A stretch of DNA of 64,000 bases from a virus (Duplodnaviria > Caudoviricetes). Below are positions 21,246-58,897 of the stretch, one piece after another. Each line of letters begins with the position of its first letter. Position 1 is the stretch's first letter. The notes beneath the pieces were generated by a model. The model was not told where the DNA came from, made no database searches, and saw only the letters and a list, made by a program, of their open reading frames with translations. A program made the position numbers and the translations under genes. The stretch is taken from the IMG/VR virus record IMGVR_UViG_3300033121_001167, positions 15,250 through 79,249 of that record; one strand, 5' to 3'.

Positions 21246-21647
21246 TTAAATTAAAACGACTGGTATTTTGAATTTTTCGGCCATTCGCAAAGTTTGTTTT
21301 ATGATTGGGTCATTTACACCCTCCTCCACCCCAACAATCAATTTGTCAATGTTTGATAGCATTTTTTTATAGCGGTCAAAATAATGACTGTAATGGTATG
21401 ATTTGTTGTAGTACTCTTTCTCGCATCCACTATACTGGTTATATCCGGAAAAGGATGGATTGTATTCAACATACGCCATTCCAAATTCTAAGGCGGTTTG
21501 CTTTACAACATATTCAATTCCAGATGTATTTCCGCCGCTCGCCACAGTCACCATCGTTCCAAAATGCTGCTTAATTTTGAACAGCAAGTCTTTAACTTTT
21601 CTGTTCTTATGTACAACATTCGTACCTCCGATTATTGCGATTTTCAT
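21246..21647 (-). CDS. SLOG/DprA-like Rossmann-fold protein
   Basis: MKIAIIGG ... VASGGNTSGIE; YFDRYKKML. Confidence 0.6.
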   Translation of the reverse strand: MKIAIIGGTNVVHKNRKVKDLLFKIKQHFGTMVTVASGGNTSGIEYVVKQTALEFGMAYVEYNPSFSGYNQYSGCEKEYYNKSYHYSHYFDRYKKMLSNIDKLIVGVEEGVNDPIIKQTLRMAEKFKIPVVLI

Positions 21648-22378
21648 TTACACCGATTTTTAGTAATTTCAATTGCAGATGGATTTATGTCGCATCCTAT
21701 AAACTTCCTCCCAAATTGTTGTGATACAATTGCGGTAGTTCCAGAGCCGAGGAAAAAATCTGCAACAGTATCTCCGACATTACTACTACACAGTACAATC
21801 CGTTGAAGTAGTTTTTCATGTTTTTCCGAAAAATAGGATGTCTTCTTTTTTACCTTCAGTCCACTTGGTATATCATCCCACACGTTTGTTGGAACAGTTC
21901 CTATGGCCAGTTTTTCAGGAGTAATATTTGGTCGGATCGTTGTTTTTGAAATTACCGATTTGTACGGTATTCGTATAGCCAAATCATTGAATGTGTAATT
22001 TTCAGATTTGGTATAAACTACAAGATAGTCGTGCTTTTTCGGAAATTCCCGCTTTCCATACCCACCTATATTATATTTCACTACAATTTCGTTTCTAAAA
22101 TTATTATATCCAAATATTTCGTCCATCATCACACGAATCCAATGGTTAATCCGTATATCGCATTGTAAATATATAGTTCCATCGTTGTGTAACACTCTAT
22201 ACATTTCCATTAATCTTGGGTGATAAAAATCGTATATTACATTTTTGTCGGCCACCAAATCAGCATAATCTGGAAAGATTTTCCCGGTACCGTATAAAAT
22301 ATCACAGTATATTAAATGTATCATTTCATCTTCTATACTGGATAATGTAATTAGATTATCTTCGCAATACAATTTCAT
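21644..22378 (-). CDS. N6/N4 DNA methyltransferase (beta class) with non-canonical DILY catalytic motif
   Basis: LIYCDILYG where DPPY is expected; RNEIVV; EKHEKLL; VADFFLGSGTT. Confidence 0.85.
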   Translation of the reverse strand: MKLYCEDNLITLSSIEDEMIHLIYCDILYGTGKIFPDYADLVADKNVIYDFYHPRLMEMYRVLHNDGTIYLQCDIRINHWIRVMMDEIFGYNNFRNEIVVKYNIGGYGKREFPKKHDYLVVYTKSENYTFNDLAIRIPYKSVISKTTIRPNITPEKLAIGTVPTNVWDDIPSGLKVKKKTSYFSEKHEKLLQRIVLCSSNVGDTVADFFLGSGTTAIVSQQFGRKFIGCDINPSAIEITKNRCK

Positions 22379-33551: not shown

Positions 33552-35123
33552 TTAAAAAAAATCAGTACGTTCAACTGAAATGTTATTTTCCGGTTTAATT
33601 TCTCGGTTTAGCACATATTTACTATACAATTGTCCTCTATTCTCCTTTGCGTGTAAAATACGCGCATTTGCAATATCACAATATTCTGGACTAATTTCAG
33701 TACCGACACAAGGAATTTCTAAAATTTCACATGCCATTGGAATTGATCCCGACCCCACAAACGGATCAAAGAATAATTGAGGGTTTGGAGTCTTGAATAA
33801 CTGTAAAATTTTAAGACACAAAGACAGTGGTTTTACTGTCGGATGTATATTTGCAACTTTAGTGCGTCGTTGTTGTTGTTCAGAATCATGTACTGATTTA
33901 CACCCACAGGTATAATAGTTAGACCCCGATGGGAGACTTTTGTCGTGGATTGGGCATCTCGGTAAAGTATCGCCTAATCCTGATCCAGATGTTAATATTT
34001 TGTTGTGAGTCTCAAATTTACTCATTCCGAGATCACGTTCCGATTTGCTAACTTTTGGGCAATAAATATACAAATCATAATCTTCTGAATCATAATCACA
34101 TTTATGCAAAATTTTTGAACATCCTCCTATATCACCGTATGTTCTTCCAGCAGGTTCTCCAGTACTTTCGGACCAAATTCCACCAGATTTAGAACCTTCT
34201 CCTGTGTATTCTTGTACTTTTTTAAGTCCACTTTGCGAATCCAGCAATTCGGAGGCTTCGGAATTTACGAATGTTTGGGCCGGAAATCTGCCGTCTGGAG
34301 CAGTATATTCTAAAACTGAATTTCCCGACTGAAACCATGATTTATTGTTACTTCCAGTTCTATTTCCAGAATAACTGCCTCCCTTATTCAACCGATCATC
34401 ATCTGGCAATGTAACTCTGGACGAATCAATATTCAACGCGCCACACAAACAATCCATATCTCCATTTTCATACGCCAATGTGTCGTGCAGACACGATCCC
34501 GTTTTGTATGGCTTTTGGAAAACCATAATTGTTTCATTTGTTTGTTTTAATGGGGAGATGGAGTATTTAAATCCGCCGTATTTTTGGGCTAATTTATGTG
34601 AGCCAATCGCTTTATAATTAATTACCGGGTCAGTATTTGAAAATGTTCTACCATCGGTATATCCATTACCATCATCTATTGTAGATATATTTCGTGTGCC
34701 AGTTATAGACGATGCCCCAACCACTTCCCGTTCCTCTCCAAAATGCTTATCCAAATTTTTACTTAAATCAGATGACTTTGGAAAGGAAGATGCAAAATAC
34801 CAATACAAACTTTGTTGTTCATTAAATCCCGCCAAACACGCATAATATTTATTCAACATGACTTGGCGATCCATGCCAAACATAACAACCCGGCCGCCAT
34901 GTTTTAATATACGATGTGCCTCTATAAACCATTCTTCCCAAAATTTGCCGTCCGGTTGGCCCCATTTATTCATAAAATCAACCGCTTTTTTATAATCTGG
35001 CTTTCCGTCTTCTCGGATAATCACCTCACTTCCAAGTGCATACGGAGGATCGGTAAAAATAACGTCAACCGAATTTGATTTCATCGTTTTCATCCGGTCA
35101 ATGCAGTTTATGGTTTCTATCAT
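33552..35123 (-). CDS. N6/N4 DNA methyltransferase with large internal insertion
   Basis: FTDPPY; HPTVKP; DPFVGSGS. Confidence 0.88.
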   Translation of the reverse strand: MIETINCIDRMKTMKSNSVDVIFTDPPYALGSEVIIREDGKPDYKKAVDFMNKWGQPDGKFWEEWFIEAHRILKHGGRVVMFGMDRQVMLNKYYACLAGFNEQQSLYWYFASSFPKSSDLSKNLDKHFGEEREVVGASSITGTRNISTIDDGNGYTDGRTFSNTDPVINYKAIGSHKLAQKYGGFKYSISPLKQTNETIMVFQKPYKTGSCLHDTLAYENGDMDCLCGALNIDSSRVTLPDDDRLNKGGSYSGNRTGSNNKSWFQSGNSVLEYTAPDGRFPAQTFVNSEASELLDSQSGLKKVQEYTGEGSKSGGIWSESTGEPAGRTYGDIGGCSKILHKCDYDSEDYDLYIYCPKVSKSERDLGMSKFETHNKILTSGSGLGDTLPRCPIHDKSLPSGSNYYTCGCKSVHDSEQQQRRTKVANIHPTVKPLSLCLKILQLFKTPNPQLFFDPFVGSGSIPMACEILEIPCVGTEISPEYCDIANARILHAKENRGQLYSKYVLNREIKPENNISVERTDFF

Positions 35124-36344
35124 TCAATAAAATTTATGAACATTATATAAAAATGGAGCAATTCTCTTTTTTGCAATATCTATATATTCTGGATTTATTT
35201 CAAACCCGATGAAGTTTCGTCCATGTTTTAAAGCAACTAATGCAGTTGTACCCGACCCCATAAATGGGTCAATTACAACAGAAGGAATCGTGTCGGAAGT
35301 TTCACATTTGCATGTTTGTTCCCACCCAACACACTTAAATTGTTGCACTGTGTCCGTTAAAAATGAAGATGTTTTTCCATGTCTTCCTTTTGACTGCTCT
35401 AATTTGTGATAATCTCTTGATCCGGGTGCCCACGATACGTTTAAGTCGTCAGTTTTTTCAAAAATTCGCTGATACGGCTTTCCGCATTCTACACAACATC
35501 CATACTCAGGTGTACCCGTTTTTATACAGGGCTCTACTAAGGCTTCCGGGTATCCCGCTACATGTTGTCCATTTGCTCCAGGCTGCAAATTGATTCTCCA
35601 AACATTACGCATGTTTGCCATCCCATGTCCAACAGCCTTGAGATTTCCATTTGTTTTTCTCCCTCCGTTTGCTTTGAATGATCCGATTTGTTGTGCAACG
35701 TCCTGTGATAATCTTCCAACCGAACTTTCGGATATTGGTTCTTTGACGGAAAATTGGTCAAAATAATATGTATCGTTTTTCGTCAACATGAACACATATT
35801 CAAAACTTCTACTAAATCTGTCAGTACAAGATTCTGGCATCGCGCTACCTTCCCTAACTTGTCCGCTTGTAGCCTTAGCCCAAATTATTGTATCCCTATG
35901 ATACCATCCAGAATCTGATAATGCCATCACTAACCGATGTGGAACATTCATCAATTCTTTTCGCTTCATTCCGGTAGGAATATACCCACTGTTTGGAATT
36001 ATTCCAGATGAACACCCATTGGTTCCGGACTTACTATTCCACACAGAATCGTGTATTTCTCCAGATTTATTTCGCCCCTTGTTACTGCCAGCGTAACTAT
36101 CTCCGATGTTGAGATATAGTACACCAGTAGGTTTCAAACACCTACGAATTTCGTTAAATATAGATACTAAATTAACGATATAGTCTTGAAGTGTTTCTTC
36201 TTTTCCTATTTCGCGTAAATTATCGTGAGTATATGAGCGGAGTCCAAAATACGGAGGACTCGTGACACAGCAATCAATTGAATTGTCGGGGAGTTTTTTC
36301 AATCCTTCCAAACAATCTTCGTTATAAATAATATTTATATCCAT
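35124..36344 (-). CDS. DNA methyltransferase, SPPY type (N4C-like)
   Basis: [10 protein letters not shown]; RDTIIWAK; HVAGYP; DPFMGSGTT. Confidence 0.9.
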
Positions 36345-45337: not shown

Positions 45338-46354
45338 TCATTTTAGTTCACACTGTCCTCCACTGCATGCCAGTTCACCAGTCAAATCAGTGTTGTCATC
45401 CAACTCAATGACTTTGGTTAGGTCAACGGCAGTTAAGGTTTTTAATAACTCACTATATTCATCTTCAGTGCAGTCTGTAAATGGGGCTTGTATATATGTC
45501 CCGTTATCATATGGGAGTACGGAAAGCCCATTATAATACTTTTTGTTTTTCCACATCCATTTTCCTACCTCCTCCCATTCTTCAGGTTTAATTGACACGG
45601 TGGCTGACACATTATGAGTATTTTGTCCGTCAATGTGGGCTGGTTTAATCCATTCAACATAAAACTTCTTAATTCTTTCAAGTAAATCAAGCGGGGATTC
45701 GCTTCTTAAAATTGCATTATCCGGGGCCTTTTGTGGAATTGAAATAACTGCGGTATCATGCGGGCGGAAGTATTCATCTTCTACCAATTCAGGATGATAA
45801 ATTGATAAATATGTGTAAATTGCTTCGTTTTTATTAACACGGATCCGCCGAATATAATAATCATTATGCCAAGCATGAATTCCACTTGATGTCCCCAATA
45901 CCAAACTGCTCGTTCCTGCCGGTTTTACGCAGGTTGTTCTGGCTGATGAATTTATACCAATTAATTTAGCCACTTGTTTATTGGTTTCATTTACTAAATT
46001 GGCCGCGGCAGTTAAATTAAAATGTTGGGCCTTTCCACTTCCTATCCCGGTCATCGAAATTCCCAATAGTGCATCTTTTTCAGTAGTTCGTTGCCAAATT
46101 AGCCTCAAATAATGGAAATCGGTATAACTCGCTTGTAATGTACCAATTATCGTAGCAGCCCGCACCCGAGAATTTAAATCTTCCTGCGATTCGATATCCG
46201 AAACATTCACTTCACATAAATTACAAAATTGAAATGGTCTAAGGGCGATTTCACAATTATGTACCAAAAGTCCATTCGCAAAGAAATTATGATTATTTTC
46301 AACTGAAATATCATAAACATCTACAACAACTTCTATCTGTCTAATCTTTAACAT
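45338..46354 (-). CDS. nrdJ: class II ribonucleotide reductase C-part preceded by a 33-aa C-intein
   Basis: IntC 46256-46354 VYDISVENNHNFFANGLLVHN, then C(+1)EIAL; CVKPAGT; HNVSAT; C-terminal CSGGQC. Confidence 0.95.
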   Translation of the reverse strand: MLKIRQIEVVVDVYDISVENNHNFFANGLLVHNCEIALRPFQFCNLCEVNVSDIESQEDLNSRVRAATIIGTLQASYTDFHYLRLIWQRTTEKDALLGISMTGIGSGKAQHFNLTAAANLVNETNKQVAKLIGINSSARTTCVKPAGTSSLVLGTSSGIHAWHNDYYIRRIRVNKNEAIYTYLSIYHPELVEDEYFRPHDTAVISIPQKAPDNAILRSESPLDLLERIKKFYVEWIKPAHIDGQNTHNVSATVSIKPEEWEEVGKWMWKNKKYYNGLSVLPYDNGTYIQAPFTDCTEDEYSELLKTLTAVDLTKVIELDDNTDLTGELACSGGQCELK

Positions 46355-47387
46355 TTATATTATCCTTTGAGTCTATTAACGCATTTTTAATGAAATTAAA
46401 GTCCTTATCTGGGTTCTTTTGAGTCAAAATATACCGCAAACCATTTTCTTTTGAATAGTTCATAGCCGCTAAAATCTTATTTTCATAATAATCTTGAAGT
46501 GGTTGATTGTAGAAACCACCTTTGGTTTCAAATAAAATCAATTCACTATCAATTTCAATAAGAAAGTCAGGAATGTGAAAGCCATCCTTATTTATTGTTT
46601 CAATTCTAATAGTTTCATATTCCCACCAAATTCCAGTTTCTTCAAAAAACTCAATAAATGATTTCTCAAATCCACTTTTCACATATATATTTTCTTGCAA
46701 TTTGCGATTAAATTTGAAACCAGTGAGTATTTCATGTTTAAAAAAACTTGGACGGATTTTCTTTATCCTTGTATTATTTCTGATTGTATTAACTCCATGA
46801 ATCCTGGTCCACAATCTTTGTATTTCGTCATCTGGCAATGTGTCTAACCACTCAGTGGTTGGAATGATATTGTTGGTAATAAGCAGGATCAATTTCGTGA
46901 ATTCATCTTCCCAATTATTAAATCGTTGTATGATTTGTTTTTTGCGGCAAATTACACTCTTTGAATAATCTGATCTAAATTTAGAATATGCCTTAAGAAT
47001 TTCATCATCTGACATGAAATCACATTCAATACCATTATTTCTAAGCCTTGACCGTTTAAAATTTACCGAATTGACTTCGGTATTGAATAGTTTGCCAGGT
47101 TGCATTAAAGTCTTTTGGTATAATTCACTCCCATTCTTTGAAAGAAATTTCATCTTCTTTGAATGTTCTGGTCGAGAAATACCAAACTTTGGTTCACATA
47201 TAGTATTTCCACATGTTCGTTTCAAATACTTCCCAATAAGACTTTGGGCACTATTAACTAATAATTTAATTTTACCACATTTGCATTTTGGTGATGTATT
47301 TCTACATAAATAATTGGCGGTATCTAAGTCAAGATTATGAAATGTGGCTAATTCAATTATGTCTTCAATCGGCGTTTTTATTTTCAT
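46341..47387 (-). mobile_element. free-standing homing endonuclease (T7 endoI/TnsA-like PD-(D/E)XK) inside split nrdJ
   Basis: EYETIRI...PDFLI...FETKG; N-terminal CKC...TC Zn motif; overlaps both nrdJ halves. Confidence 0.78.
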
Positions 47388-48655
47388 ATTTCCACTAACT
47401 CATCCATTTCATCTAAATTTTGCGCTTCAACCCAACCACGATTGGTCGTGTAAATTTTATGATCTGGTGTACATCTTATTACCTTTCCATTATATTCAAG
47501 TTCAATTAAAGTTTTGGATTTTTTAGTTAAAATTCCATCAGTAATACGATTCCATTCAAGTTGGTTGGTATCTTCATTCAATGTCAATACAAATGGCCCA
47601 ATTAAATTAGTTTGACATATATCAACTAAATTTTTAATTGGAATTTGGTATGATTGAGTTAAACTCCCATCAATATTTTCATCTCGAACTGTAATTAAAG
47701 TATCACCAACTAAACAGCATGGGTTGGTTCCCCAGTCCTTATCATTTGTCAAATAAATTCCTGGTTCTCCAGCATTACTCAATTCAATACGTTTCCATAA
47801 ATCAAAGAAAAATTCCTCTGTAACTTTATGCCGCAATAAAACTGCGCTATTGTTTGCTCTACCTCGTTGTGAATTCAATTCCCACCAGTTTCCGCTTTTG
47901 CATGAAATCATTTCGTCGTCATTTGCACTAAATAGTGAGATTAGGGCTGCGCGACGAATACCACCGGCCAACACCGAGTCTGCAATGTGACAAATAATGT
48001 CATGTACTTCAATAGGACGTAGTTTATCGCCATTATTTTTTGATTCTAAAATGCCTTCAATTTTAATCAAACATTCCTTCAATGGTTGTGGTCCGGGTGC
48101 CTTACCACCAGATGTAATCAGCCGAACTCCCTTTGGGCGAATGTCGCCAAAATCAAAAACAATTTTAGACCCGCCGTAAAAATACGATTTCATCAATGTT
48201 TTGATTGCGTCCGCCCACCCTTCAATGTTATCGGCAATTAACCACCGTCTGGTTCTGTCTTGTTTCGGCTTTACAATTTCGGGAAGTTTTTCAACATGAT
48301 GATGTTGTACTGAAAATCCAATACCAGTACCACCCAGCAACAAAAACATAATTTCAGAAAACGCTCGCCAATCATCAACTGGAAGGTATGCACAATTGTA
48401 AATTCGCGTCGGATTTAATTCAATTGGCTTTCCCGCAAATTGCATACTCCGCATGGATGGAAGTATTTTTTTATCATATACTAATTTATACGCATTTTCA
48501 ATCTCGTCACTTAATTCTGGAAATTTTTTTAAGTGCATTTCCTTGTTTCTATCAACCAGTTCACTCCACGTTTCACGTCTTTGTTTTTCTGGTATGTATT
48601 TAGCATACTTCATAAAAACAGTAATATCACTTAAAATTCTTTGGCTTAATTCCAT
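47384..48655 (-). CDS. nrdJ: class II ribonucleotide reductase N-part plus 110-aa N-intein
   Basis: PSMRSMQFAG, YNCAY, GGTGIGFS, GEPG, GTNPC, then CLVGDT...RCTPDHKI (IntN 47387-47716). Confidence 0.95.
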   Translation of the reverse strand: MELSQRILSDITVFMKYAKYIPEKQRRETWSELVDRNKEMHLKKFPELSDEIENAYKLVYDKKILPSMRSMQFAGKPIELNPTRIYNCAYLPVDDWRAFSEIMFLLLGGTGIGFSVQHHHVEKLPEIVKPKQDRTRRWLIADNIEGWADAIKTLMKSYFYGGSKIVFDFGDIRPKGVRLITSGGKAPGPQPLKECLIKIEGILESKNNGDKLRPIEVHDIICHIADSVLAGGIRRAALISLFSANDDEMISCKSGNWWELNSQRGRANNSAVLLRHKVTEEFFFDLWKRIELSNAGEPGIYLTNDKDWGTNPCCLVGDTLITVRDENIDGSLTQSYQIPIKNLVDICQTNLIGPFVLTLNEDTNQLEWNRITDGILTKKSKTLIELEYNGKVIRCTPDHKIYTTNRGWVEAQNLDEMDELVEI

Positions 48656-50059
48656 TTAAAATAAATCCATGTTTTGAGGTTCTTGTCTGTGTGAATTCAG
48701 TGCATTTTGGACTCGCTGTGATGCTAATTGAAGTCCGTATTCATCGTCGGTCATCATTTCTTTTGTCTTGACTGTTTTTCCAGTCGTCGTATTTTCATTA
48801 TATACTTCAAATTTACCAACTGACGTATCAAACCGCATAGGAAATGTCATTCCATCCGGTCCAAGCCTGTTTTTTGATATGTGTAATCTTGCTACATTGT
48901 TTATTTTATCTTTTGGTCTGCGAGAGACTGACATCATAAAATCCAATGCGAACAACTTGGCAAAACTGTTTGATACTGAGTCATTTTCTATCACATCTTT
49001 ATCAAGCCCACTTCTGTTCGTTTGGTCACAACCCCATAGTGCAAATCCCTCTCTCCCGCAAAGTCCTCGTAAATCTTTATATAATTCGCCAAGTACTTTG
49101 TCCTCCCGCATATTGTTATTATACGGGATTATTAAAAGTTCTGGATAATCAAGTACTACTAAGTCCGGCACAATTCCCAATAATTTAAGTCGCTTAATAT
49201 CAGTTTCTAATGCCCGAATTGACAAAGTACTTGGCGGAAATTCTTTGATAATCAGTTTTCCCGAAAATTTTGAAATTGTACGTTTAATTTGCGAAATATT
49301 ATATTTCAAATCATCAAACGTAATACCCGTCATAATACTGTCATACCGCCTTGCTACATAATTTGCATCAAGTTCCAGTGTATAGTGGACAACTACTTTT
49401 CCCGATTTCAATGCCTCTGCTCCAAGTTGACATAAAATCCAACTTTTGCCAACTCCGGTTGGTGCCATTACAATTCCAAATTTTCCTTTTGGGAGCCCGC
49501 CGCCCATTATGTCATCTATAACTCCCCACCCAGTCTTAACTCTCGGATTCTCCGTAATTTCAGTATAACGGACATCAATATCTTTTAAATAATCAAGCCC
49601 GTTAGACTCTGTTTTTTGTCCTTTTTGACGGGCAGCAATTAGTACTTCAACTGCTTCGTCTATCATTCCTTTTTGTAGCAATTCAATTGATTCAGGATAC
49701 GCATTTTTAATCAACTGATGACGGCAAAATTCAAAAATTCGGTCTTTAATGAATTGTAAATCAGTTGCTTCCTTTGTATGAAAAAATACATCCTTTAAAC
49801 AACTTAAAACTTCATCCTTGAATAATGTGTCATGCTTTAAATTACTGATTTGAATTTTGAATACTTCCCATGTTGGAGGAGTTTTGTACTCGTTGAAATA
49901 ACTGTAAATTTGTTCAATCAGCCATTTTAGAGCACGATTTTCAAAATATGCAGGTTCAAGTTTATCACTTATATCACTTAAAAATTCACGGTCTAATATT
50001 AATGATGCGACGATTTTTGATTGTGTGTTGTAATCATATTCATTTATTGTGTTGACCAT
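48656..50059 (-). CDS. replicative helicase (DnaB/gp41-like)
   Basis: APTGVGKS Walker A, HYTLE, VLDY, QTNR, SKNRLG. Confidence 0.92.
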   Translation of the reverse strand: MVNTINEYDYNTQSKIVASLILDREFLSDISDKLEPAYFENRALKWLIEQIYSYFNEYKTPPTWEVFKIQISNLKHDTLFKDEVLSCLKDVFFHTKEATDLQFIKDRIFEFCRHQLIKNAYPESIELLQKGMIDEAVEVLIAARQKGQKTESNGLDYLKDIDVRYTEITENPRVKTGWGVIDDIMGGGLPKGKFGIVMAPTGVGKSWILCQLGAEALKSGKVVVHYTLELDANYVARRYDSIMTGITFDDLKYNISQIKRTISKFSGKLIIKEFPPSTLSIRALETDIKRLKLLGIVPDLVVLDYPELLIIPYNNNMREDKVLGELYKDLRGLCGREGFALWGCDQTNRSGLDKDVIENDSVSNSFAKLFALDFMMSVSRRPKDKINNVARLHISKNRLGPDGMTFPMRFDTSVGKFEVYNENTTTGKTVKTKEMMTDDEYGLQLASQRVQNALNSHRQEPQNMDLF

Positions 50060-51081
50060 ACCACTAAACTGTTAAAAGTTGAATTTAGCCAATGATCCAA
50101 ATTTTTAAATGAATCAATAAGCCCATCCTCGCGTATAAATCGGTTAAACGCCGTCCTATTCATTTTATTGATTGGACTCCTCAGCAAATCCATAATTTGT
50201 ATTTTCGTGCTGCTTGAAATGTCCGTATCATGTAATTGCATTAGGTCATAATTTCTATCCATTATTTCCCTCCCAGCAATTATGTTTTTAAACACTTGTT
50301 TTGGCTTTTTTTCAGTCTCAACGATCTCTTGGCTGCGGGTATATAAGTAGTCAAGGTCAACTACTTTTTCTGTGATTTCTGGAAAGGATTTTAACAATGT
50401 TTTCAATCCAATCCCGGGTATTCCACCAATATTGTCCGAATCATCGCCAGTCAAAACTCTGTACGTCAAATAATTGGATGGGTGCAGTCCTAATTCATTT
50501 TTTATTTCCAAAGGTGTGTATAATTTTTTCTTCGTAGGGCTATACACCTCAACCTTATCACTCACTAACTGCAAAAAATCTCGGTCTGTACTTACAATTC
50601 TAATTTTGTTTTCAGTTTTGTCGTAGTAATTAGCTGCAATGAACGCGACTACATCATCCGCTTCAACATGGTCAATACAAAATAACTGGATCGGCAACAA
50701 TGTTAAATACTGTGCAGCACGAAGAATTTGACTTCGTTTTGATTTTTCTTCGTCTTCGGACGTGACAAAAATATCTCTACGCATACTCGTTTTACTTGAA
50801 CGATTTGCTTTATATTCCGCATAAACTTTTTTTCTGCGAGACGATCCGCCCTTTCCGTCAAAAACTACAATACAACGGGTTGGATTAAACTCTCGGATAT
50901 TTATTCCGATACTACGCAGAAATCCAAGCGTAGCACCAACATGTTCCCCATTTTCAGTGATTGGAAATCCTGCCGCCCAAATTCGAATCCACAAATTCGT
51001 ACCATCAATGATCAATACTCGATCATCAACATTACTTGGTAATTGGTCAGTTTTTGAAAAAATATTGGATAGATCAATCAT
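50044..51081 (-). CDS. 5'-3' exonuclease / T4 RNase H-like (FEN family)
   Basis: IIDG, VVFDGKGG, YKANR, EADDV, STDRDFLQL, GDDSDNIGGIPGIG. Confidence 0.92.
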   Translation of the reverse strand: MIDLSNIFSKTDQLPSNVDDRVLIIDGTNLWIRIWAAGFPITENGEHVGATLGFLRSIGINIREFNPTRCIVVFDGKGGSSRRKKVYAEYKANRSSKTSMRRDIFVTSEDEEKSKRSQILRAAQYLTLLPIQLFCIDHVEADDVVAFIAANYYDKTENKIRIVSTDRDFLQLVSDKVEVYSPTKKKLYTPLEIKNELGLHPSNYLTYRVLTGDDSDNIGGIPGIGLKTLLKSFPEITEKVVDLDYLYTRSQEIVETEKKPKQVFKNIIAGREIMDRNYDLMQLHDTDISSSTKIQIMDLLRSPINKMNRTAFNRFIREDGLIDSFKNLDHWLNSTFNSLVVWSTQ

Positions 51082-52087
51082 TCAACAAATTGGTTATAAA
51101 TTCTATTTTAGATTCATCAGATTCAAGCAGTTCCCAATCATATTGCCAAATTATATAGAATTTATAACCATTATCAATGGCCCTACTATACTTTTCATTA
51201 TCAGATTCCCAAACATCAGAAACAAGTAAGTTGCGATGTGCATCATAGTGATCTTCCTCGTAAAATCTTGGGTCAAAATGCCAATAAGACCCGTTATATT
51301 CAATTATGGTGTTTTTAAATTCAATTACAATATCCCATGATTTTCCAAATTTAATCAAATTACCATCAACATAATCTTCAGGATAAATAAAATCTTTTAC
51401 AATTCTAAACACATCATCTTGGCCCTTACTACCAAATAAGTGTTTAGTTTTTGAAAATACACCAGTTTCCCATTGTCGTTTTGTATTCTCGGATAATAAC
51501 TTTTTTGTTTCTTCACTAACAACTCTTTTTGGTGGTCGCCAGCCAGTAGCGAATCGAGCCAATGCTACTTCAGATTGACGTTTTCGGGTCTCGTCTGAAA
51601 CAATTTTCCCAGTATTCCCTAAGGCAATCTTTTTTCGATGTTCTGGAGTTAGCCTACCACCGCAATTTCTTAATCGATTTTCAGTTCTTTTCTTGATTAC
51701 TTCGGGCGTTTGAGTTTTACCATCATCAATCAACTTTTGCATTGACTTTCGACTTATTTCTTTGAGCGCCAAGCCGTATTCAGTATCCTTATTTTCTTCC
51801 CAGAATTTACGAATTGATTCAGTACGCTTGGCTTGAGTATTTGGGGGGCACTTTCTGCCAGTCAATGCAATTGTGATCTTCTTACCAACATACGTTCGTC
51901 GTTTTTTGAGTATTATTTTATAAATTTCATGTGAATCTTTATCATATTCAGCATAAAAATTTTGCTTCATTTGGTTTATTTCAGGTCTTCGATATTTGTA
52001 TAATCGTTCAATTGAAGCAAAGCCAAATATTTCGTTAGTCTCATCTAAAAATAACGCATAGATTTCATCATTAGTTAATAATATCAT
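51074..52087 (-). mobile_element. free-standing homing endonuclease, NUMOD3 repeats plus Vsr/DUF559-like nuclease
   Basis: EHRKKIALGNTGKIVSDETRKRQS repeats; WDIV...IIEYNGSYWH...IWQYDW. Confidence 0.8.
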
Positions 52088-52128: not shown

Positions 52129-52509
52129 CTAATCAGCAAATGGACGAGGGCTGAAATCGGGAGCAAACTTCAACGGACAACCAAGTGCCGCATCATCTAT
52201 GAATAGGTGTGCATGGCACTTTGGAGATGTTGTCCATGAATTTTGTGTTGGATTTTGTTGAATGCCATAACGTGGTATATCGTTTTCAGCAAACCACTCT
52301 ACAGCCTGAGTTAAAAAATCTCCAGAATGAATTTTATAACCGTCTTCCAGCACCTGTTCTTCCTGACTATCACTTCTCATAGTCCATAAAATTAACTGAT
52401 GACCAGCATAAACTAATTTTCTTAAAACGGGTGCTGCACCTACATCATGCCCAACTTCAGGAAAAGAATGTGTGACACATGTCCCATCAAAATCTATAGC
52501 AATAATCAA
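52129..52509 (-). CDS. HAD-family phosphatase (BT0820-like)
   Basis: IAIDFDGT, LILWTMR, FIDD. Confidence 0.82.
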   Translation of the reverse strand: MIIAIDFDGTCVTHSFPEVGHDVGAAPVLRKLVYAGHQLILWTMRSDSQEEQVLEDGYKIHSGDFLTQAVEWFAENDIPRYGIQQNPTQNSWTTSPKCHAHLFIDDAALGCPLKFAPDFSPRPFAD

Positions 52510-53015
52510 TCATTTAACAAAATTTTAAAACATTCATATTCTTTTTTTGCACCAGTAAGCGCATTATGAATTTTCGGTTCTGGTTCAATGCCAAGCATTC
52601 CGCATATTTTAAACATACTATATGATCCACCAAACCTCTGATAACCAAGCGAATGTAAGTCAACAGTTCTAAAGAAAAACGGAAAATCTTTAATCTTTCG
52701 TTGCTTTTTGTGAATTTCTTTAAGATACTGAAGGTCAAATCCTGCAATATTATGTCCAGCAAGCATTGTACTTCTACTACTCGCCCATTTGACAAATTTT
52801 TGATACAATTGCACTGCACTTTGTTTTCGCGGATCAGTTATCTGCTCCATCGTAAATCCATTGATTTTCAACGCTTCGTCAGTTACAATTGAATTGACCG
52901 AAATTCTACATTCTTCATAGAATTCATCGCCAGTGTCATAATCAACTGCACCAAGTGAAACGATTGAAGTGGTTTGTGGGTCAATACCCGTAGTTTCTAA
53001 ATCAATTATTATCAT
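52506..53015 (-). CDS. DEDDh 3'-5' exonuclease
   Basis: DLETTG, GHNIAGFD, HNALTGA. Confidence 0.88.
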   Translation of the reverse strand: MIIIDLETTGIDPQTTSIVSLGAVDYDTGDEFYEECRISVNSIVTDEALKINGFTMEQITDPRKQSAVQLYQKFVKWASSRSTMLAGHNIAGFDLQYLKEIHKKQRKIKDFPFFFRTVDLHSLGYQRFGGSYSMFKICGMLGIEPEPKIHNALTGAKKEYECFKILLND

Positions 53016-53019
53016 AGTT

Positions 53020-54153
53020 TTAGTCTTCTTCTATATTTGTATCAATTTCAATATCATCAATTCCAAAATCATCATCCAGTTTGTATTTCATAATATACGC
53101 ATCACAAATTTGCTTGTATATCATTTCCTTCAAAGCAGGATCGTCGGTTAATAATTTTTTAAAATGTTTGGATTGGAATTTTTTAGTTACTTCTTCTCCA
53201 GTTTCGCCATCTACATACACATAACTGTAAGATGAACCACTTTGTTTGAGGAAACCAAATTCTTTAAGAACAGTCAACCATCCACCATAATTGTCCAGCC
53301 CACTCTCATAATACATATCAAGTTTTACTTTTCTGCGAGGTGGTCCAAGTCGGTTTTTCACTACACTTACCTCAATTTGCTCACCTACTGGAACATTCGC
53401 CACTTTAATTGCGCCAAGTTTTTTCACTCGCAATCTAACAGATGCAGTGAATGGAATTGCATTTCCGCCAGTAGTGGTAAATTTATCGGAAAATAATCCG
53501 GCATTCATATTTGCTCGTAATTGATTGATTAAAACGAGCCCAATTTTCCGACCAATCAGTAGTCCGGGTATCTTGCGCATCGCCTTTGAATTTATGATTG
53601 CCTTTGCAGTTGCGTATCCGTCTTTTCCATAATCGGCTTCAAGTTCTGTTAATGTACTTGCTCCCATCACACTATCAATTACAATTAAAAGTGGTTTGTT
53701 TGTATTTGATGCGACTGCTCGTTCAATCATCAATGCCACAGCATCATACACTTCTTCTAATGCCCGAAGTCTATCAATGTATATTAGTTTGTCTGGGTCC
53801 AATCCGAGTGACACATAGAAATCTAACATACCAACTGCTTTCTCAGTATCAAATAATACACCAGTTCCGCCCATTTTTTGACATTCGGCTAACATTGTGG
53901 CTGCTAAAAGACTCTTTCCACTCCCCTCCAAGCCACTTATCTCCAAAATTCCACCAAGCCCCATTGTTCCGCCATTTGGACGATTAGATACAGCTAAATC
54001 CAATATATCACTTCCACTTTTTACCCAACCTGTAACTAAGTTTGCATTTGTAAGATACCCGGCTGCATCTGGAAATTCTTTATATTTTTTGTTTATTACA
54101 GACAATACATCGTCTGCCAAATTATCAATCACTTCTGCTTTAGTTTTGGCCAT
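53020..54153 (-). CDS. recA: RecA/UvsX recombinase
   Basis: GLEGSGKS, FDTE, IDSV, INQLR, GGNAIPF, VVKNRLGPP. Confidence 0.93.
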   Translation of the reverse strand: MAKTKAEVIDNLADDVLSVINKKYKEFPDAAGYLTNANLVTGWVKSGSDILDLAVSNRPNGGTMGLGGILEISGLEGSGKSLLAATMLAECQKMGGTGVLFDTEKAVGMLDFYVSLGLDPDKLIYIDRLRALEEVYDAVALMIERAVASNTNKPLLIVIDSVMGASTLTELEADYGKDGYATAKAIINSKAMRKIPGLLIGRKIGLVLINQLRANMNAGLFSDKFTTTGGNAIPFTASVRLRVKKLGAIKVANVPVGEQIEVSVVKNRLGPPRRKVKLDMYYESGLDNYGGWLTVLKEFGFLKQSGSSYSYVYVDGETGEEVTKKFQSKHFKKLLTDDPALKEMIYKQICDAYIMKYKLDDDFGIDDIEIDTNIEED

Positions 54154-54167
54154 AGGGAAAATTAGTT

Positions 54168-54209
54168 AAAAAAGACTACCCACAATCGCATAGATAATGA
54201 GTAGTCTTT
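54168..54209 (-). terminator. intrinsic terminator after ssb
   Basis: AAAGACTAC/GTAGTCTTT 9-bp stem, followed on the minus strand by a T-tract. Confidence 0.65.
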
Positions 54210-54235
54210 ATGATTAAAACAAAGTGGATTAAAAA

Positions 54236-55096
54236 TTAAAACGGCATATCATCGTCATCTGGTTTTGCCGGGCTATCCATATCATTGAACAGCGTATCAA
54301 AATCGTCAACGATTTCATTTATAGTTGATGTGGATGTAGAAGTAGGCACCGCTGTTGCTACTTCTTTCTTTGGCTCAGGAGTCTTCACATTCAAGTATTT
54401 TTCCACAGCCGCAAGTAATTCATCATAACTTGGTTCTGTAAACAAAGTTTTCAATTCGGGCATCGCGTTGATTTTTTCAAGTACCGCTTTATCTTCAGTT
54501 GCAACCGTAGATTTTCGTGCTGGGATGATTTTTGTGCTCGGATAATCCGTACCATTCACTTCAGGTGGTGAATAAACCACTTTCAAATCAGTGCCAGTTT
54601 TCAAATCTGACAAATCGCCCCACTCTTCATCGGCAAAATATTCAAGCAGCGATTCGTAGATTTTTTTCGTAAATCCCCAATATTTTGGGCCTTCATGTTC
54701 CTTTCCGCGAATCAAAACCGCGACATAGTAACGGTCGGCTGGCTCAAGTTTACGACGAAAATTAGCCAATGCCATCCACTCGTCCTTCGGAATTTTAGTA
54801 CCTTCTGGGATAATTGCATTATACGCTTCAACTGCCGGATCCCTGCGATCAAACTGACAAGGGGCAAGCCAAGTTTTACCAAAATTGTAATAAAATTTCA
54901 GTTCACTGAATGGCATTTCTGAATTGTAAATGTTTGGTAGAATACGGATGTTGTATTCTCCTGCTGCCGCTTGCCCTGTGGAGGTTTTTGTAGCAGTTGG
55001 TTTCCAAAATAAATCTTGGTTTCCACCAGTTTGTGGAGTTTTTGTTTGCGTTTCCTTCAACGCAGCCAGTTTGGCTCGGATTTGTTCTACATTCAT
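54236..55096 (-). CDS. single-stranded DNA-binding protein (T4 gp32-like)
   Basis: FWKP...IRILP, acidic C-terminal tail DDDDMPF; context. Confidence 0.85.
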   Translation of the reverse strand: MNVEQIRAKLAALKETQTKTPQTGGNQDLFWKPTATKTSTGQAAAGEYNIRILPNIYNSEMPFSELKFYYNFGKTWLAPCQFDRRDPAVEAYNAIIPEGTKIPKDEWMALANFRRKLEPADRYYVAVLIRGKEHEGPKYWGFTKKIYESLLEYFADEEWGDLSDLKTGTDLKVVYSPPEVNGTDYPSTKIIPARKSTVATEDKAVLEKINAMPELKTLFTEPSYDELLAAVEKYLNVKTPEPKKEVATAVPTSTSTSTINEIVDDFDTLFNDMDSPAKPDDDDMPF

Positions 55097-55159
55097 GTTT
55101 TCAAAATGGTTTGGTTAGAAAAATTGATAACAACCAGTACTTTAACTGGTATTTATTTA

Positions 55160-55200
55160 CAATAATACAGAATATTTTTGAGATTTCCAAATCATTAACA
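55160..55200 (-). promoter_or_regulatory. Bacteroidota-type promoter upstream of ssb
   Basis: TGTTAATGATTTG, 20 nt spacer, TATTATTG (55160-55167). Confidence 0.7.
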
Positions 55201-55214
55201 GGTCATTTGCATTT

Positions 55215-55922
55215 TTATCTTATTATTTTTAATTCGTGATAATTTGTTCCAACCTTCAAGTGGAATGGAATTTGATCAAATATTTTTATTAAATTTTTAA
55301 GAAATTGTTTCCCATCTTCATGGCAATAATCAAGCAAAAATGAATCATAGGTGTAAAGTACTAATTTTGTTTTTGTAGTTTCGGTTAAATTTAGCAATTG
55401 ATCAATCAGATTGCTGTTAAATTCTGTTTCAAGATTCTGCAATAAATAATTGAATATTTTGCTTTGATTGAAGCCGTTCAATTTTTTCGTATCAATTTTA
55501 CGACCAAACAACAACGTCTTCAATTCCCCGCTCAAGTAAGACTGATAGAATTGATGTGTTAATTCGTGTATTTCTTTAAATGGGGATAGATGTTGATATT
55601 GTTGCTCAATTCCACCATAAATCTGTTTGAATGTTAATTCCTTCGCTCGTGCAATGTCGTCACTTGTTGGATTATCTGTGTTGAAATAAACTTTACTAAG
55701 TTCCAGATAGATGTTCTTCGGGAATGGCTTGCTTATTATCAGGTAGATCAAATATAAGTGGAATCCTGACAAGTCAATTTCAATTAAACAGCCGCCATCA
55801 AATCTGGAAACGAATCGCTTACGACTTCCATCAGTTTTGTTCAACGCCGCATAATTTACATTGTTGAAGTGGTTTGACGGACGACCAGTTAGAGTGTATG
55901 GATTGAATTCACAGTGTTCCAT
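55215..55922 (-). CDS. family A polymerase-like protein, C-terminal (palm/fingers) half
   Basis: LTGRPS, EIDLSGFH (motif A), RAKELTFKQIYG (motif B), YTYDSFLLD (motif C). Confidence 0.75.
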   Translation of the reverse strand: MEHCEFNPYTLTGRPSNHFNNVNYAALNKTDGSRKRFVSRFDGGCLIEIDLSGFHLYLIYLIISKPFPKNIYLELSKVYFNTDNPTSDDIARAKELTFKQIYGGIEQQYQHLSPFKEIHELTHQFYQSYLSGELKTLLFGRKIDTKKLNGFNQSKIFNYLLQNLETEFNSNLIDQLLNLTETTKTKLVLYTYDSFLLDYCHEDGKQFLKNLIKIFDQIPFHLKVGTNYHELKIIR

Positions 55923-56148
55923 TATTTACAATTTTAACAAACTCGATATCTTCTTCACGGATTTTATCACGTTCCCATACTTTATTTAAAACATCAGTCC
56001 AATTAAAACCATCGATTTCAACCAATTTCACAGTCGTATTGAATCCTGATTTAAAATTAAGACGACAAAGATAAGTTTGTAGCAATGCTCCACGAAAGTA
56101 AAGTGCTATATCACATGGAGAATCAATACATGACATCCAAAGAACCAA
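55909..56148 (-). CDS. hypothetical protein (inside split polA-like locus)
   Basis: Overlaps both neighbours; start uncertain. Confidence 0.5.
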   Translation of the reverse strand: MVLWMSCIDSPCDIALYFRGALLQTYLCRLNFKSGFNTTVKLVEIDGFNWTDVLNKVWERDKIREEDIEFVKIVNNGTL

Positions 56149-56363
56149 TTTGGCATTGTTATTTCGTCAATATGATTTTGAAATTCATCACTTTTTGGAA
56201 ATAGGCGACGAGTCCGCATAGAATGTCGACGTTTGTCAAACCCATCTACCCATTCACTTGATATTTCATTTGTAACTGGATTGTGAAAAAACGTTGGAAG
56301 ATCTAATTTGATTAGATTATCACCACATATTCCAATTTCCTTTAATTCTTCAATCGTTGTCAT
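56106..56363 (-). CDS. hypothetical protein (inside split polA-like locus)
   Basis: 85 aa coupled ORF. Confidence 0.6.
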   Translation of the reverse strand: MTTIEELKEIGICGDNLIKLDLPTFFHNPVTNEISSEWVDGFDKRRHSMRTRRLFPKSDEFQNHIDEITMPNWFFGCHVLILHVI

Positions 56364-56673
56364 TCTTCAACCAGTTTAATCTTCCAATTGGAAGTGATGT
56401 GGAATATGCGTCATGTTGCTGTCTATCTAAATCAGATAATGAATAAACTGGTGAAATACCATATTCATAACCAATACTGTTCTCATCAATAGTAATTGTG
56501 ATGAATTTTTGTTTATTTCTAAATTCAAACACAATCTTATCTAAATCGCCACAAACGGCCTCGATAAATTGATGGAATACATCTGGTAAATTATTGATAA
56601 ATCGCTTGGCGTTATCTTTGATAATTTGATCTACACTAAGCGAATCAATTTCTTGTAAATATTCAGTTTCCAT
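56350..56673 (-). CDS. hypothetical protein (inside split polA-like locus)
   Basis: 107 aa coupled ORF. Confidence 0.6.
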   Translation of the reverse strand: METEYLQEIDSLSVDQIIKDNAKRFINNLPDVFHQFIEAVCGDLDKIVFEFRNKQKFITITIDENSIGYEYGISPVYSLSDLDRQQHDAYSTSLPIGRLNWLKNDND

Positions 56674-56905
56674 ACATCGAATAATTGAGCGGAAGGTTAT
56701 TCTCTTTGTAATATTCAGACAATTTTGTGATTAAATATTCTAATGTATCATATCTAACTAACCAAGAAGTAGGAACGGGATCAAACCGCTCATCCATTTT
56801 AGATTTCAATTCAATTTGTTGATCTATGATTTCTTTCAGAGGTGGTACATTCCCACTATGAAGAACTGATTTAATTAAATCTTGATCAAATTGTATAGAG
56901 GCCAT
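56663..56905 (-). CDS. hypothetical protein (inside split polA-like locus)
   Basis: Start MASIQF overlaps the end of the polA-like N-half. Confidence 0.55.
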   Translation of the reverse strand: MASIQFDQDLIKSVLHSGNVPPLKEIIDQQIELKSKMDERFDPVPTSWLVRYDTLEYLITKLSEYYKENNLPLNYSMYGN

Positions 56906-57437
56906 TCTTTTCAATTTTTGCTAAATTCGTGATCATTTTATCATATTGTAAAAATACATCGTCCATCACAAAGTTTTTACATCCAACAACCCACCTATCC
57001 TTTATTTCACGACAATAATCCAACCACTTCATAATAGGGATACAATCGTTTAAATTTTGTTGGGTCGGATATAAATGCCAAAACTGACGGACTGTATTCG
57101 GAATTTGCAAATTCTTATCTAATCGTTCATTTGTCATAAACCAAAATGCCAACTGCGCATCATAATCTTGCGTAGAATCGCTCAAATATTTTTTCTGGTA
57201 TATAGTGTTACCTCGTGAAAGAAAGTCGCTTAGAAACGAAATTTGGTACTGGTCACAATCGTTGTGATTTGTACCGACTATCCATTCCTCATACGTTTCA
57301 AGTCCATAAAAATATACAAACGAAATACGATTTTGACACCAATGCTTTTTATGATCTGAGAGTACCGGAATCCATAATGTTTTTTGATCCATGAACTTGG
57401 TAAATTGGGACTCAAGTCGTGAATCTAAGAAGTTCAT
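56886..57437 (-). CDS. family A polymerase-like protein, N-terminal (exonuclease-like) half
   Basis: IPVLSDH...NDCIPIMKWLDYC...LAKIEKNGL; in recalled homologues this runs directly into the GRPSN segment. Confidence 0.55.
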   Translation of the reverse strand: MNFLDSRLESQFTKFMDQKTLWIPVLSDHKKHWCQNRISFVYFYGLETYEEWIVGTNHNDCDQYQISFLSDFLSRGNTIYQKKYLSDSTQDYDAQLAFWFMTNERLDKNLQIPNTVRQFWHLYPTQQNLNDCIPIMKWLDYCREIKDRWVVGCKNFVMDDVFLQYDKMITNLAKIEKNGLYTI

Positions 57438-58120
57438 TTCAATCTACTATTTGTTATTTCAATATAGTCACAATTGTTATCACAGCCTTCATATCGTCTG
57501 TTTTCATTCTTTGCTGCCAATAAAAACGTACCAGACCCACAAAAGGGATCAATCACTAAATCACGGGCATTACTAAAAATCCTAACTAAGCGTTCGCCCA
57601 ATTGTAGCGGCTTTTGTGTTGGATGATTGACACGTTCACTTGACCACGGAACAATAGGTGAAATATCTGTCCATACATTGGACAATGATCTGAATTCATT
57701 TCCATTTTTCAGTCCCATCCCGCCAGTTTTTTTCTTTATAGTTGAGTATTCTTTGTTAAACGTGTATTTTGAAGTTTTTGTAAACCACAAAATGTCTTCA
57801 CGAGTTGACGTAAAATTTGTTTTAGCGCCTCTACCTTTTATTCGGTCATAAATTAACCAATTTTGCAATGTAAATCCGACTGATTCAAATTCAGTTTTAG
57901 TTTTCAAAACATTTGACCAACCACAAAAAATGATTACATTTCCAGTATCCTTTAATATTTCAAAGGATTTTTTTGCAAAATATGACCAGTCAACAATATC
58001 TGGAGCATCCCAACTATTTGATTGGTAGTTTATACCATACGGAGGATCGGTACAAATCATATCCACCGATTTGGGCAATTTTGTATTTAGGAAGTCAACG
58101 TAATCACAAGTTTCAATCAT
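57434..58120 (-). CDS. N6/N4 DNA methyltransferase (beta class)
   Basis: CTDPPYG, HPTQKP, IDPFCGSGT. Confidence 0.92.
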   Translation of the reverse strand: MIETCDYVDFLNTKLPKSVDMICTDPPYGINYQSNSWDAPDIVDWSYFAKKSFEILKDTGNVIIFCGWSNVLKTKTEFESVGFTLQNWLIYDRIKGRGAKTNFTSTREDILWFTKTSKYTFNKEYSTIKKKTGGMGLKNGNEFRSLSNVWTDISPIVPWSSERVNHPTQKPLQLGERLVRIFSNARDLVIDPFCGSGTFLLAAKNENRRYEGCDNNCDYIEITNSRLK

Positions 58121-58126
58121 TATTCA

Positions 58127-58171
58127 CAAATATACGAATATTATTTGAAGTTTCCAAATTTTTTTTGTTAA
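58127..58171 (-). promoter_or_regulatory. Bacteroidota-type promoter opening the replication module
   Basis: TTTG (58155-58158), 20 nt spacer, TATATTTG (58127-58134); GTTAAC upstream. Confidence 0.75.
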
Positions 58172-58190
58172 CGAAATCACAATGGCTGTT

Positions 58191-58760
58191 TCAACGATAA
58201 AATTCCAACGGATCAGTCAAAAATGACGCAATTCCGGGAAACTTTAGTGAGTTTGAAACTATATGTGTTAAATTTAATTGGCGAGCATCATTTTGAGGAA
58301 TTTTACTTATCACCCAATCCAGTTTTATTCGGTTCCAAATTACACCATTTATACCGGGCTTGTTTTGTGTGTTGATACCATTGTATTGCTGGACATCAAT
58401 TTCAAGAATCGTATATAAAGGATTGTTACGCTTTTGAATTAAAAATCGTTCAATTCGACCAGTCTTGTAATCATCCAACGTCGGGGTTGGTTGGTATGAA
58501 ACAGGTGTGAGTGATTTGTTGACTCCGCTTCCAGTTAACTGGTTGTATTTCAGGATGTCTTGGGTTGGATTTAACCGAAGTTCAAATAGTTCAACACTTT
58601 TTGGTTCTGGCTGAAATCCTGTAAACCGCTGGCCCGTTGGAAGTATGTGAAAACTACCAATATAAACACTACCATCTTCCAATACAAACTCATTTCCTTC
58701 CGAGTACTGTCCCGTTAGGATTTGATGAAGTGCGAAGTATGGTCTTTGGATACGGGGCAT
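58191..58760 (-). CDS. putative virion/baseplate-associated protein
   Basis: 189 aa; last gene of the structural block. Confidence 0.5.
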   Translation of the reverse strand: MPRIQRPYFALHQILTGQYSEGNEFVLEDGSVYIGSFHILPTGQRFTGFQPEPKSVELFELRLNPTQDILKYNQLTGSGVNKSLTPVSYQPTPTLDDYKTGRIERFLIQKRNNPLYTILEIDVQQYNGINTQNKPGINGVIWNRIKLDWVISKIPQNDARQLNLTHIVSNSLKFPGIASFLTDPLEFYR

Positions 58761-58897
58761 TATATGAGCGGAAATTCTTTAATTATGTCAATTGCATTAA
58801 ATGGAACTGAATTTAAGGTATAGCATCCCTCTTTGTAAAAGTTTGGGTCGGCATATATTTTAAATTCATGGCCTATTTTATTTAAGTCTATACTCAT
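58760..58897 (-). CDS. small hypothetical protein (45 aa)
   Basis: Manual translation MSIDLNKIGHEFK...; TAATG-coupled. Confidence 0.5.
   Translation of the reverse strand: MSIDLNKIGHEFKIYADPNFYKEGCYTLNSVPFNAIDIIKEFPLI

Follow-up and report, generated by a model that had tools for sequence, protein, structure and literature searches.

Several phage DNA polymerases are known to be encoded in two pieces. In Aeromonas phages 25 and 44RR, the family B polymerase gp43 is split into 43A and 43B, and the account of Petrov et al. is that the halves co-purify and are active (PMC2988022). The split family B polymerase (PolB) of PhiKZ, DNAP-N/DNAP-C, is reported to form a stable 1:1 complex (PMC13648687). 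In T7-like cyanophages such as S-SBP1, a family A polymerase (PolA) is made of two separate gene products, whose assembly has been predicted (Czernecki et al. 2023, PMC10201439; 10.1101/325100). Dassa et al. (2009, PMC2677866) reported fractured genes in which split inteins occur and an endonuclease lies between the pieces. Here, I describe a divPolA1 gene that is split into two cistrons in a 64,000-nucleotide (nt) stretch of a virus of the Caudoviricetes (Duplodnaviria), positions 15,250 to 79,249 of the IMG/VR record IMGVR_UViG_3300033121_001167, which is a 79-kb fragment estimated to be 41% complete. This whole stretch is called the window. divPolA1 was described computationally by Yutin et al. 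(2024) as a second family A polymerase of 14 phages around Flavobacterium phage immuto. In that description, the divPolA1 species are single-gene proteins with a truncated thumb and an inactivated exonuclease, and they always occur with a regular polymerase and have replication genes downstream. According to PMC11348598, the activity of divPolA1 has never been tested. The main text of Yutin et al. (2024) does not describe a split divPolA1 and uses the word 'split' only of a tree.

As listed in Table 1, the N-terminal half (polN) and the C-terminal half (polC) of the polymerase lie on the minus strand, which carries all genes in this part of the window according to the list of open reading frames (ORFs). 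polN ends with LAKIEKNGLYTI, in which the motif IEKNGLYTI is directly followed by the stop codon, while polC starts with MEHCEFNPYTLTGRPSN. There are 963 nt between the stop codon of polN and the ATG of polC, and this gap is occupied by four ORFs (A to D) of 83, 107, 85, and 79 amino acids (aa), which overlap with their neighbours by 11-43 nt. At the other end, the start of polN overlaps with the stop codon of the upstream methyltransferase gene by 4 nt. The GC content of the gap (0.29-0.35) is the same as in the polN and polC halves. A contig from a DNA run of another study is identical to the window over positions 55716-57027, and three RNA libraries gave contigs (X1 to X3) that cover positions 54200-58745, collinear with the window and unspliced. 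The RNA-library contigs come from one study, and what they show is that the unspliced form is present, not transcription, ends, or level. Since the DNA-run and RNA-library contigs span the region collinearly, the layout is not an assembly artefact. I put at about 75% the probability that polN and polC encode a non-covalent two-subunit divPolA1 and that the gap between the cistrons is a fast-turnover slot for accessory genes.

Do the two halves amount to one polymerase? It was found that polN and polC align collinearly, with no overlap and no loss, to single proteins of 400-470 aa. The unsplit relatives found by tblastn with polC include proteins of 441 aa (Flavobacterium phage immuto), 408 aa (Microcystis phage Mel-JY01), and 452 aa (an uncultured 484-kb phage), and the match to the 'DNA polymerase family A' of immuto has an E value of 9e-22 and 31.8% identity over 91% of the query. 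polN covers the exonuclease-like domain, inactive by the family description, and the first helices of the polymerase domain. In unsplit relatives, IE.NG and YNPYT.TGRPSN are separated by 4 to ~30 residues, as in IEQNGFYPEFTEYNPYT of the relative P0005. The original prediction, made from the window sequence, had proposed that a PolA-like gene is broken into two ORFs with four small ORFs between them, and that IEKNGL and YNPYT.TGRPSN stand close together in one polypeptide. Both proposals are borne out, and the two halves are contiguous on the single proteins of immuto, Mel-JY01, and the 484-kb phage.

A library search with polC matched 903 representative clusters (50% identity) at E<=1e-3, which makes divPolA1 a large polymerase family. 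Among the best 150 of the 903 clusters, 134 are at least 392 aa long, and in these polC matches the C-terminal half. Of the ten shortest among the 150, nine were inspected; only P0003 and P0017 begin at the break, and the others are fragments. P0017 (226 aa, starting with MAPIENCEYTHYNPYT) may likewise be split. A profile built from 80 full-length members matched the Klenow fragment at E=9.2e-9, with motifs A, B, and C in register. The Pfam family DNA_pol_A (PF00476) had no match in the window record, either with polN and polC at E<=0.01 or in a six-frame scan of the 79 kb at E<=1. Its cut-off is passed by the immuto protein and by P0001 (42.7 bits; cut-off 34.3), and P0013 scores 26.2 bits. 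The structure model of P0005 (pLDDT, the predicted value of the local distance difference test, 96.6; predicted template modelling score, pTM, 0.93) resembles Klenow 1kfd over its whole length including the exonuclease domain (TMq 0.77), and a Foldseek search with this model retrieved Pol theta, Pol1, Pol nu, and Klenow at E=1e-12 to 3e-14. In polC, all 17 family-invariant columns are kept, including R14, D50 (motif A), K94/F98/Y102 (motif B), and D193 (motif C); D50, K94, Y102, and D193 are invariant across 52 sequences. polN keeps the near-invariant family residues H32, H58, P134, E176, and G179.

In the alignment to Klenow, an invariant His of the family (polC residue 55) is found at the position of the motif A Glu, which I take to be the steric gate. 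The family motif C is YDS (Asp-Ser at polC 193-194) where Klenow has HDE. In T7 RNA polymerase, motif C is HDS. If these assignments for the motif A Glu and for motif C are right, the sugar selectivity of the family may differ from that of Pol I.

Judged by its sequence, the split enzyme is divPolA1 (Yutin et al. 2024). Like the divPolA1 of immuto and its kin, it has a truncated thumb, apparently no conserved acidic residues of the exonuclease, a co-resident regular polymerase, and genes for a single-stranded DNA-binding protein (SSB), a recombinase, and a 5'-3' exonuclease downstream. The family profile pairs IE.NG with Klenow IERNG and TGRPS with TGRLSS, and the ~85-100 Klenow residues between them are unmatched. 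The P0005 model has no helix in residues 184-218, the expected position of the thumb, and in the window this position is taken by ~6 residues (YTI plus MEH). In the first ~180 residues of the 80 full-length members, no Asp or Glu other than E181 is conserved in at least 90%, as may be expected of an inactivated exonuclease. The regular polymerase of the phage is a PolB, near which a clamp-loader gene lies. Thus, the original prediction needs a correction in that the split divPolA1 is not the only polymerase of the phage. The same downstream gene order follows the single-gene polymerase in phage immuto. Given the missing thumb and the gene context, divPolA1 probably does short-patch synthesis beside the PolB replicase, together with the neighbouring SSB, recombinase, and exonucleases.

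The locus differs in some respect from each of the closest described systems. The divPolA1 presented by Yutin et al. (2024) is a single gene, whereas here there are two cistrons with cargo between them. The 43A/43B pair of the Aeromonas phages is likewise a two-cistron phage DNA polymerase, with a spacer described as either a short untranslated stretch or a larger insert. In contrast to 43A/43B, a family B replicase, the enzyme here is of family A and a second polymerase, and the break lies in a different domain. One of the 43A/43B inserts is described as holding a seg-type homing endonuclease; none was found in the gap ORFs here. The S-SBP1-type cut is placed by its authors between the exonuclease and polymerase domains, results from a +1 frameshift, and leaves adjacent genes without cargo. 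Unlike that type, the cut here falls within the polymerase domain, namely at the thumb stump, the subfamily is a different one, and the gap with its cargo ranges from 30 nt to 2.5 kb; polN runs through the polymerase-domain IEKNG, which aligns to Klenow IERNG. The PhiKZ enzyme shows that such splits can work, although it is a family B polymerase of a chimallivirus with a clamp-like third subunit, and its abstract describes no cargo slot, unlike the locus here (PMC13648687). As in the layout described by Dassa et al. (2009), the halves of an enzyme gene have ORFs between them, and a likely example of that layout, a ribonucleotide reductase (RNR) gene, lies 7 kb away in the window. At the polymerase break, however, there is no intein, and no endonuclease was found in the gap. 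In summary, this is a clade-wide two-cistron divPolA1 cut at the thumb stump, and it is not a new mechanism, because phage polymerases that are split and carry inserts are already known, both among PolB and in another PolA subfamily.

Is the split common among related phages? Related loci, 59 in all, were taken from GenBank phages, IMG/VR, and metagenomes and classified. The polymerase is one unsplit ORF in 31 loci; in 17, it is broken at the same residue and polN was found upstream. In five loci, polC comes right after a stop codon and the contig ends before polN. Three contigs end before the upstream region can be read, and three loci have a short polC match only, or none. Some of the loci are duplicates, being the same contig in two collections (L045 = L007 and L055 = L019). 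The 17 split loci represent 13 gap types, or 14 with the window, whose gap lengths are ~30, 240, 240, 340, 367, 575, 650, 963, 1120, 1470, 1640, 1750, 2420, and 2545 nt; the extremes are 30 nt in L015 and L016 and ~2545 nt in L014. On these comparisons, the split is inherited and common to a clade, not private to the window phage. The two ORFs are therefore normally separate genes in the nearest relatives, while the wider family has one gene. The original prediction had named normally separate homologues as a reason to abandon it, and this describes the nearest relatives but not the family.

The break itself is uniform. Every N half stops 3-7 residues past IE.NG, in the pattern IE.NG[ILF].. 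and then the stop codon. In 12 of the 14 gap types, the C half starts with an ATG at the homologous position, in the context M[FLI]E[YH].E[YFH] (the starts seen are MFEY, MLEH, MIEY, and MEHC). The cistron junctions are ATGA, TAATG, and TGATG, as in translationally coupled operons. The stop codon of polN overlaps with the next ATG as ATGA in L004, L006, L008, and L012, and the stop codon of the last cargo ORF overlaps with or abuts the ATG of polC. In L015 (1366-1445) and L016, the two halves share a reading frame, and only one TGA and ten sense codons precede the ATG of the second half. This gap looks like a slot emptied by deletion, and readthrough of the stop codon there would yield a fused protein.

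Could one polypeptide be restored at the RNA level? If the gap were a group I or group II intron, or were passed by bypass or readthrough, the frames of the two halves would meet neatly where the gene is broken. Group I introns are classically found in phage polymerase genes, and the shared frame of the halves in L015 and L016, with one TGA and 30 nt between them, would suit readthrough. I nevertheless consider such a device extremely unlikely. Rfam gave 0 matches at E<=1 over positions 54000-59000, and 0 at the gathering threshold over nine split loci (98 kb). The gaps are packed edge to edge with same-strand ORFs and have no common non-coding ends. The 30-nt gap is too short for self-splicing, yet it keeps the stop codon and the ATG, and the ATG at the start of the C half is kept in 12 of 14 gap types. 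The 963 nt are far above the 50-nt bypass given for T4 gene 60 (10.1101/2022.08.31.505936). The RNA-library contigs of three runs cross the region without a joint, which is a weak argument in that these contigs may be DNA.

The halves might instead be joined at the protein level by a split intein or another form of protein splicing, in the manner of this phage's RNR gene, which is in pieces and has intein splicing domains at its break. At the polymerase break, however, polN and polC are flush with the unsplit relatives, and the extra intein pieces of ~100 aa or ~35 aa are lacking. polN ends in YTI and polC begins with MEHCEF, with no Cys- or Ser-initiated N-intein block. polN, polC, and ORFs A to D had zero matches in Pfam or PHROGs at E<=0.01, and therefore no intein or nuclease domain was detected, in agreement with what had been read from the gap ORFs before; as a positive control, the RNR halves match PF14890 in the same Pfam library. 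The probability of protein splicing here is close to negligible. Of the three options in the original prediction, the two-subunit enzyme and the cargo at a tolerant linker are thus retained, with separate cistrons at the thumb-stump loop and a variable gap. The third, splicing or bypass, is set aside in view of the lack of Rfam matches, the 30-nt gap with its stop codon and ATG, and the unspliced contigs.

The class II RNR gene of the window lies in pieces over 45338..48655 on the minus strand. From its domain matches, it looks like the split-intein 'fractured gene' layout of the type of Dassa et al. (2009).

It was also assessed whether the two halves are maintained. The ratio of nonsynonymous to synonymous substitution rates (dN/dS) of polN is 0.25 between the window and the related strain L043 and 0.09 in two further split pairs; that of polC is 0.06 against L043 and 0.06-0.10 over the split pairs. 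Thus, both halves are under purifying selection, and the split state has been kept across lineages whose proteins are only 50-60% identical. A decaying remnant, in which one or both halves are dead and PolB does all synthesis, would be in keeping with the presence of PolB and a clamp loader, with the decayed look of gap ORFs B, C, and D, and with the lack of any activity test of divPolA1 in PMC11348598. It is very unlikely in view of the dN/dS values of 0.06-0.25 in both halves, the retention of all invariant catalytic-motif residues in polC, the persistence of the split across such diverged lineages, and the conserved context of the polC start.

Several observations speak against a two-subunit enzyme with a single ancient split. 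The dN/dS of polN against L043 (0.25) is above that of polC. L043 and L051 have no homologous ATG, and their C halves would start at a TTG there or at an ATG 4-13 codons upstream. The unsplit L009, P0004, P0005, P0006, and P0010 are placed among the split proteins on quick trees, and a single ancient split is therefore not established. These trees have weak inner support, and the second was made without L043; the tree requires four state changes, of which well-supported branches force only one. The RNA-library contigs may hold DNA and drop rare forms, so there is room for a minor spliced product. The phage also has PolB, and therefore the split enzyme need not be essential. Because unsplit proteins interleave with split lineages on the trees, it may be suggested that divPolA1 was repeatedly cut at one residue and joined again, and that the gap was kept as a privileged, fast-exchanging expression slot, some of whose cargo (DUF1508, DUF5662, and Cfam, a family of ~110-aa proteins) might target the polymerase or host defences. 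I regard this extended scenario as possible but doubtful. If the slot reading is true, the cargo would be guaranteed co-transcription and translational coupling with the replication module.

In the preferred reading, a non-covalent two-subunit divPolA1, the gene would have been cut in a short surface loop standing where the thumb of Pol I emerges, and each half would be translated from its own start codon. The halves would then assemble non-covalently into one enzyme, as conservation and the precedents of other split phage polymerases suggest. The split would be old and common to a clade of related phages. Since co-transcription of the two cistrons is required, the stretch that separates them would behave like any gene boundary of these phages, and small accessory genes would be inserted, shuffled, decayed, and replaced there by recombination.

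The contents of the gaps fit this picture. The gap ORFs of the relatives are all on the polymerase strand, and the recurring cargo comes in varied combinations of DUF1508, DUF5662, Cfam, ATP-grasp R2K, DUF4419, and DUF3307 families with families of 109/119-aa, 84-aa, and 69-aa proteins. L043 is a close strain, with flanking DNA 95-98.6% identical to the window and polN and polC both 93% identical. Its gap is a different stretch of 334 nt with one unrelated 120-aa ORF, and in blastn the homology breaks exactly at the polN stop codon and the polC start. The two strains also differ by whole-gene indels at other gene boundaries: the methyltransferase gene upstream of polN is missing in L043 (it is present in L013), and two stretches of ~520-545 nt are found only in L043. 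The cargo swap and the other boundary indels indicate that the polN-polC gap behaves like an ordinary gene boundary of a mosaic phage genome.

Was the split made by a mobile element? As described for mobE and nrdA, the gene may have been put in pieces by a homing endonuclease or a mobile cassette. The endonuclease would since have been lost, the cargo seen today would be its leftover, and the enzyme would still be of two subunits. Free-standing endonuclease-like ORFs are found nearby (51074..52087 and 46341..47387), and polN and polC diverge more from L043 than the flanks do (93% against 95-98.6% identity), as co-conversion would give; a precedent is described in PMC2988022. On the other hand, no endonuclease family was found by Pfam in 36 gap ORFs (four of the window and 32 of relatives) or by PHROGs in 24 (the same four and 20 of the 32). 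Such an origin seems rather unlikely. It concerns only how the split arose and could be true together with the two-subunit reading.

What are the four ORFs of the window? In the preferred reading, they are cargo of the slot, and neither polymerase parts nor a splicing device. ORF A overlaps with the end of polN by ~20-29 nt; no relatives were found by BLAST in other gaps or in the 79-kb record, and it has no usable Atlas match. When only the pieces of this gap were searched with a hidden Markov model (HMM) built from four cargo proteins of ~215 aa, ORF B matched HMM positions 16-86 at E=0.0015. Atlas matches to ORF B are sub-threshold leads only, with TM 0.71-0.78 to the first half of hypothetical proteins of 184-208 aa. 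ORF B is possibly a truncated N-terminal remnant of a DUF5662-containing cargo gene (~215 aa), of which relatives have intact copies; a close-relative locus search with ORF B found nothing. ORF C has tblastn matches to relatives at E ~1e-7 and matches positions 10-81 of the Cfam HMM at E=5.5e-11. Cfam is present in the gaps of L004/L018, L012, L014, and L044. The first ~27 residues of ORF D match Cfam HMM positions 83-107, collinear with the match of ORF C, at an E value (0.095) that is not significant alone; for its remaining residues, no relatives were found. It is likely from the collinear matches that ORFs C and D are one frameshifted Cfam gene. The order B then C/D mirrors the order DUF5662 then Cfam in L012, and ORF B and ORFs C and D may be decayed copies of cargo genes. 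A close-relative locus search with the Cfam copy of L012, a method that reaches close relatives only, returned its own contig only, and a Cfam fold predicted from four sequences was unusable (pLDDT 41.6). Only ORF C, among the four, has clear relatives in other gaps. Thus, the four ORFs do not move as a unit, which had been raised as a possibility.

A natural two-piece divPolA1 indicates that the chain can be interrupted at the loop where the thumb is missing, and the two-piece form could be used as it stands to reconstitute the enzyme and to study how DNA is held by a Pol I that has no thumb. In addition, the locus illustrates cleanly how a split gene turns into an accessory-gene slot in nature, since strains 93-98% identical in DNA carry unrelated cargo. 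Such loci may help gene callers not to label split enzymes as fragments, and may help to find new small phage genes.

Table 1. Positions of the split polymerase gene, the gap ORFs, and other genes discussed. Positions refer to the window unless a locus is named.
Feature	Position	Strand	Remarks
polN, N-terminal subunit of split divPolA1	56886..57437	-	183 aa; collinear with residues 1 to ~185 of unsplit relatives
Gap ORF A, function unknown	56663..56914	-	83 aa from TTG 56914; 80 aa from ATG 56905
Gap ORF B	56350..56673	-	107 aa
Gap ORF C, Cfam member	56106..56363	-	85 aa; without the C-terminal part of the family in frame
Gap ORF D	55909..56148	-	79 aa; end overlaps polC start by 14 nt
polC, C-terminal subunit of split divPolA1	55215..55922	-	235 aa, own ATG; palm and fingers; motifs TGRPSN, A, B, C
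gp32-like SSB	54236..55096	-	downstream of polC; replication/recombination module 52506..55096
UvsX/RecA recombinase	53020..54153	-	downstream module
DnaQ-like exonuclease	52506..53015	-	downstream module
337-aa free-standing ORF	51074..52087	-	flanked by the 5'-3' exonuclease gene and by a small HAD-like gene; PHROG HNH/homing-endonuclease matches
5'-3' exonuclease	50044..51081		farther downstream of polC
RNR N-terminal domains and intein N-splicing region	47384..48655	-	Intein_splicing E=8e-7
348-aa ORF between RNR halves	46341..47387	-	weak Phage_endo_I match
Intein C-splicing region, then RNR barrel	45338..46354	-	Intein_splicing E=2e-6
Family B DNA polymerase, regular polymerase of the phage	31008..33548	-	846 aa; PF00136 115 bits, PF03104 90 bits
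N6/N4 DNA methyltransferase, directly upstream of polN	57434..58120	-	PF01555 E=8e-41
Other N6/N4 DNA methyltransferase	21644..22378	-	
Other N6/N4 DNA methyltransferase	33552..35123	-	
Other N6/N4 DNA methyltransferase	35124..36344	-	
~189-aa protein of no known family	58191..58760	-	
Gene of the ~189-aa type in a relative	L002 3818-4444		
Gene of the ~189-aa type in a relative	L003 3948-4334		

A scan for sigma-70 promoters, outside which Bacteroidota-type promoters fall, gave 18 sites against 21.8 expected from shuffles. A terminator scan gave 5 sites against 2.8 in shuffles and was not judged to be above the shuffle level.

The window has four N6/N4 DNA methyltransferase genes in total, including the one directly upstream of polN. 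In a methyltransferase of 523 aa, the methylase domain is spread over residues 19-486, and this spread suggests an insertion.

Directly upstream of divPolA1, a protein of ~189 aa that belongs to no known family is encoded in nearly all related loci, split or not. The RNA-library contigs X1 to X3 match the window up to position 58745, with four substitutions before the break, and then continue into unrelated sequence. Thus, another strain differs from the window upstream, within or before the gene for the ~189-aa protein.

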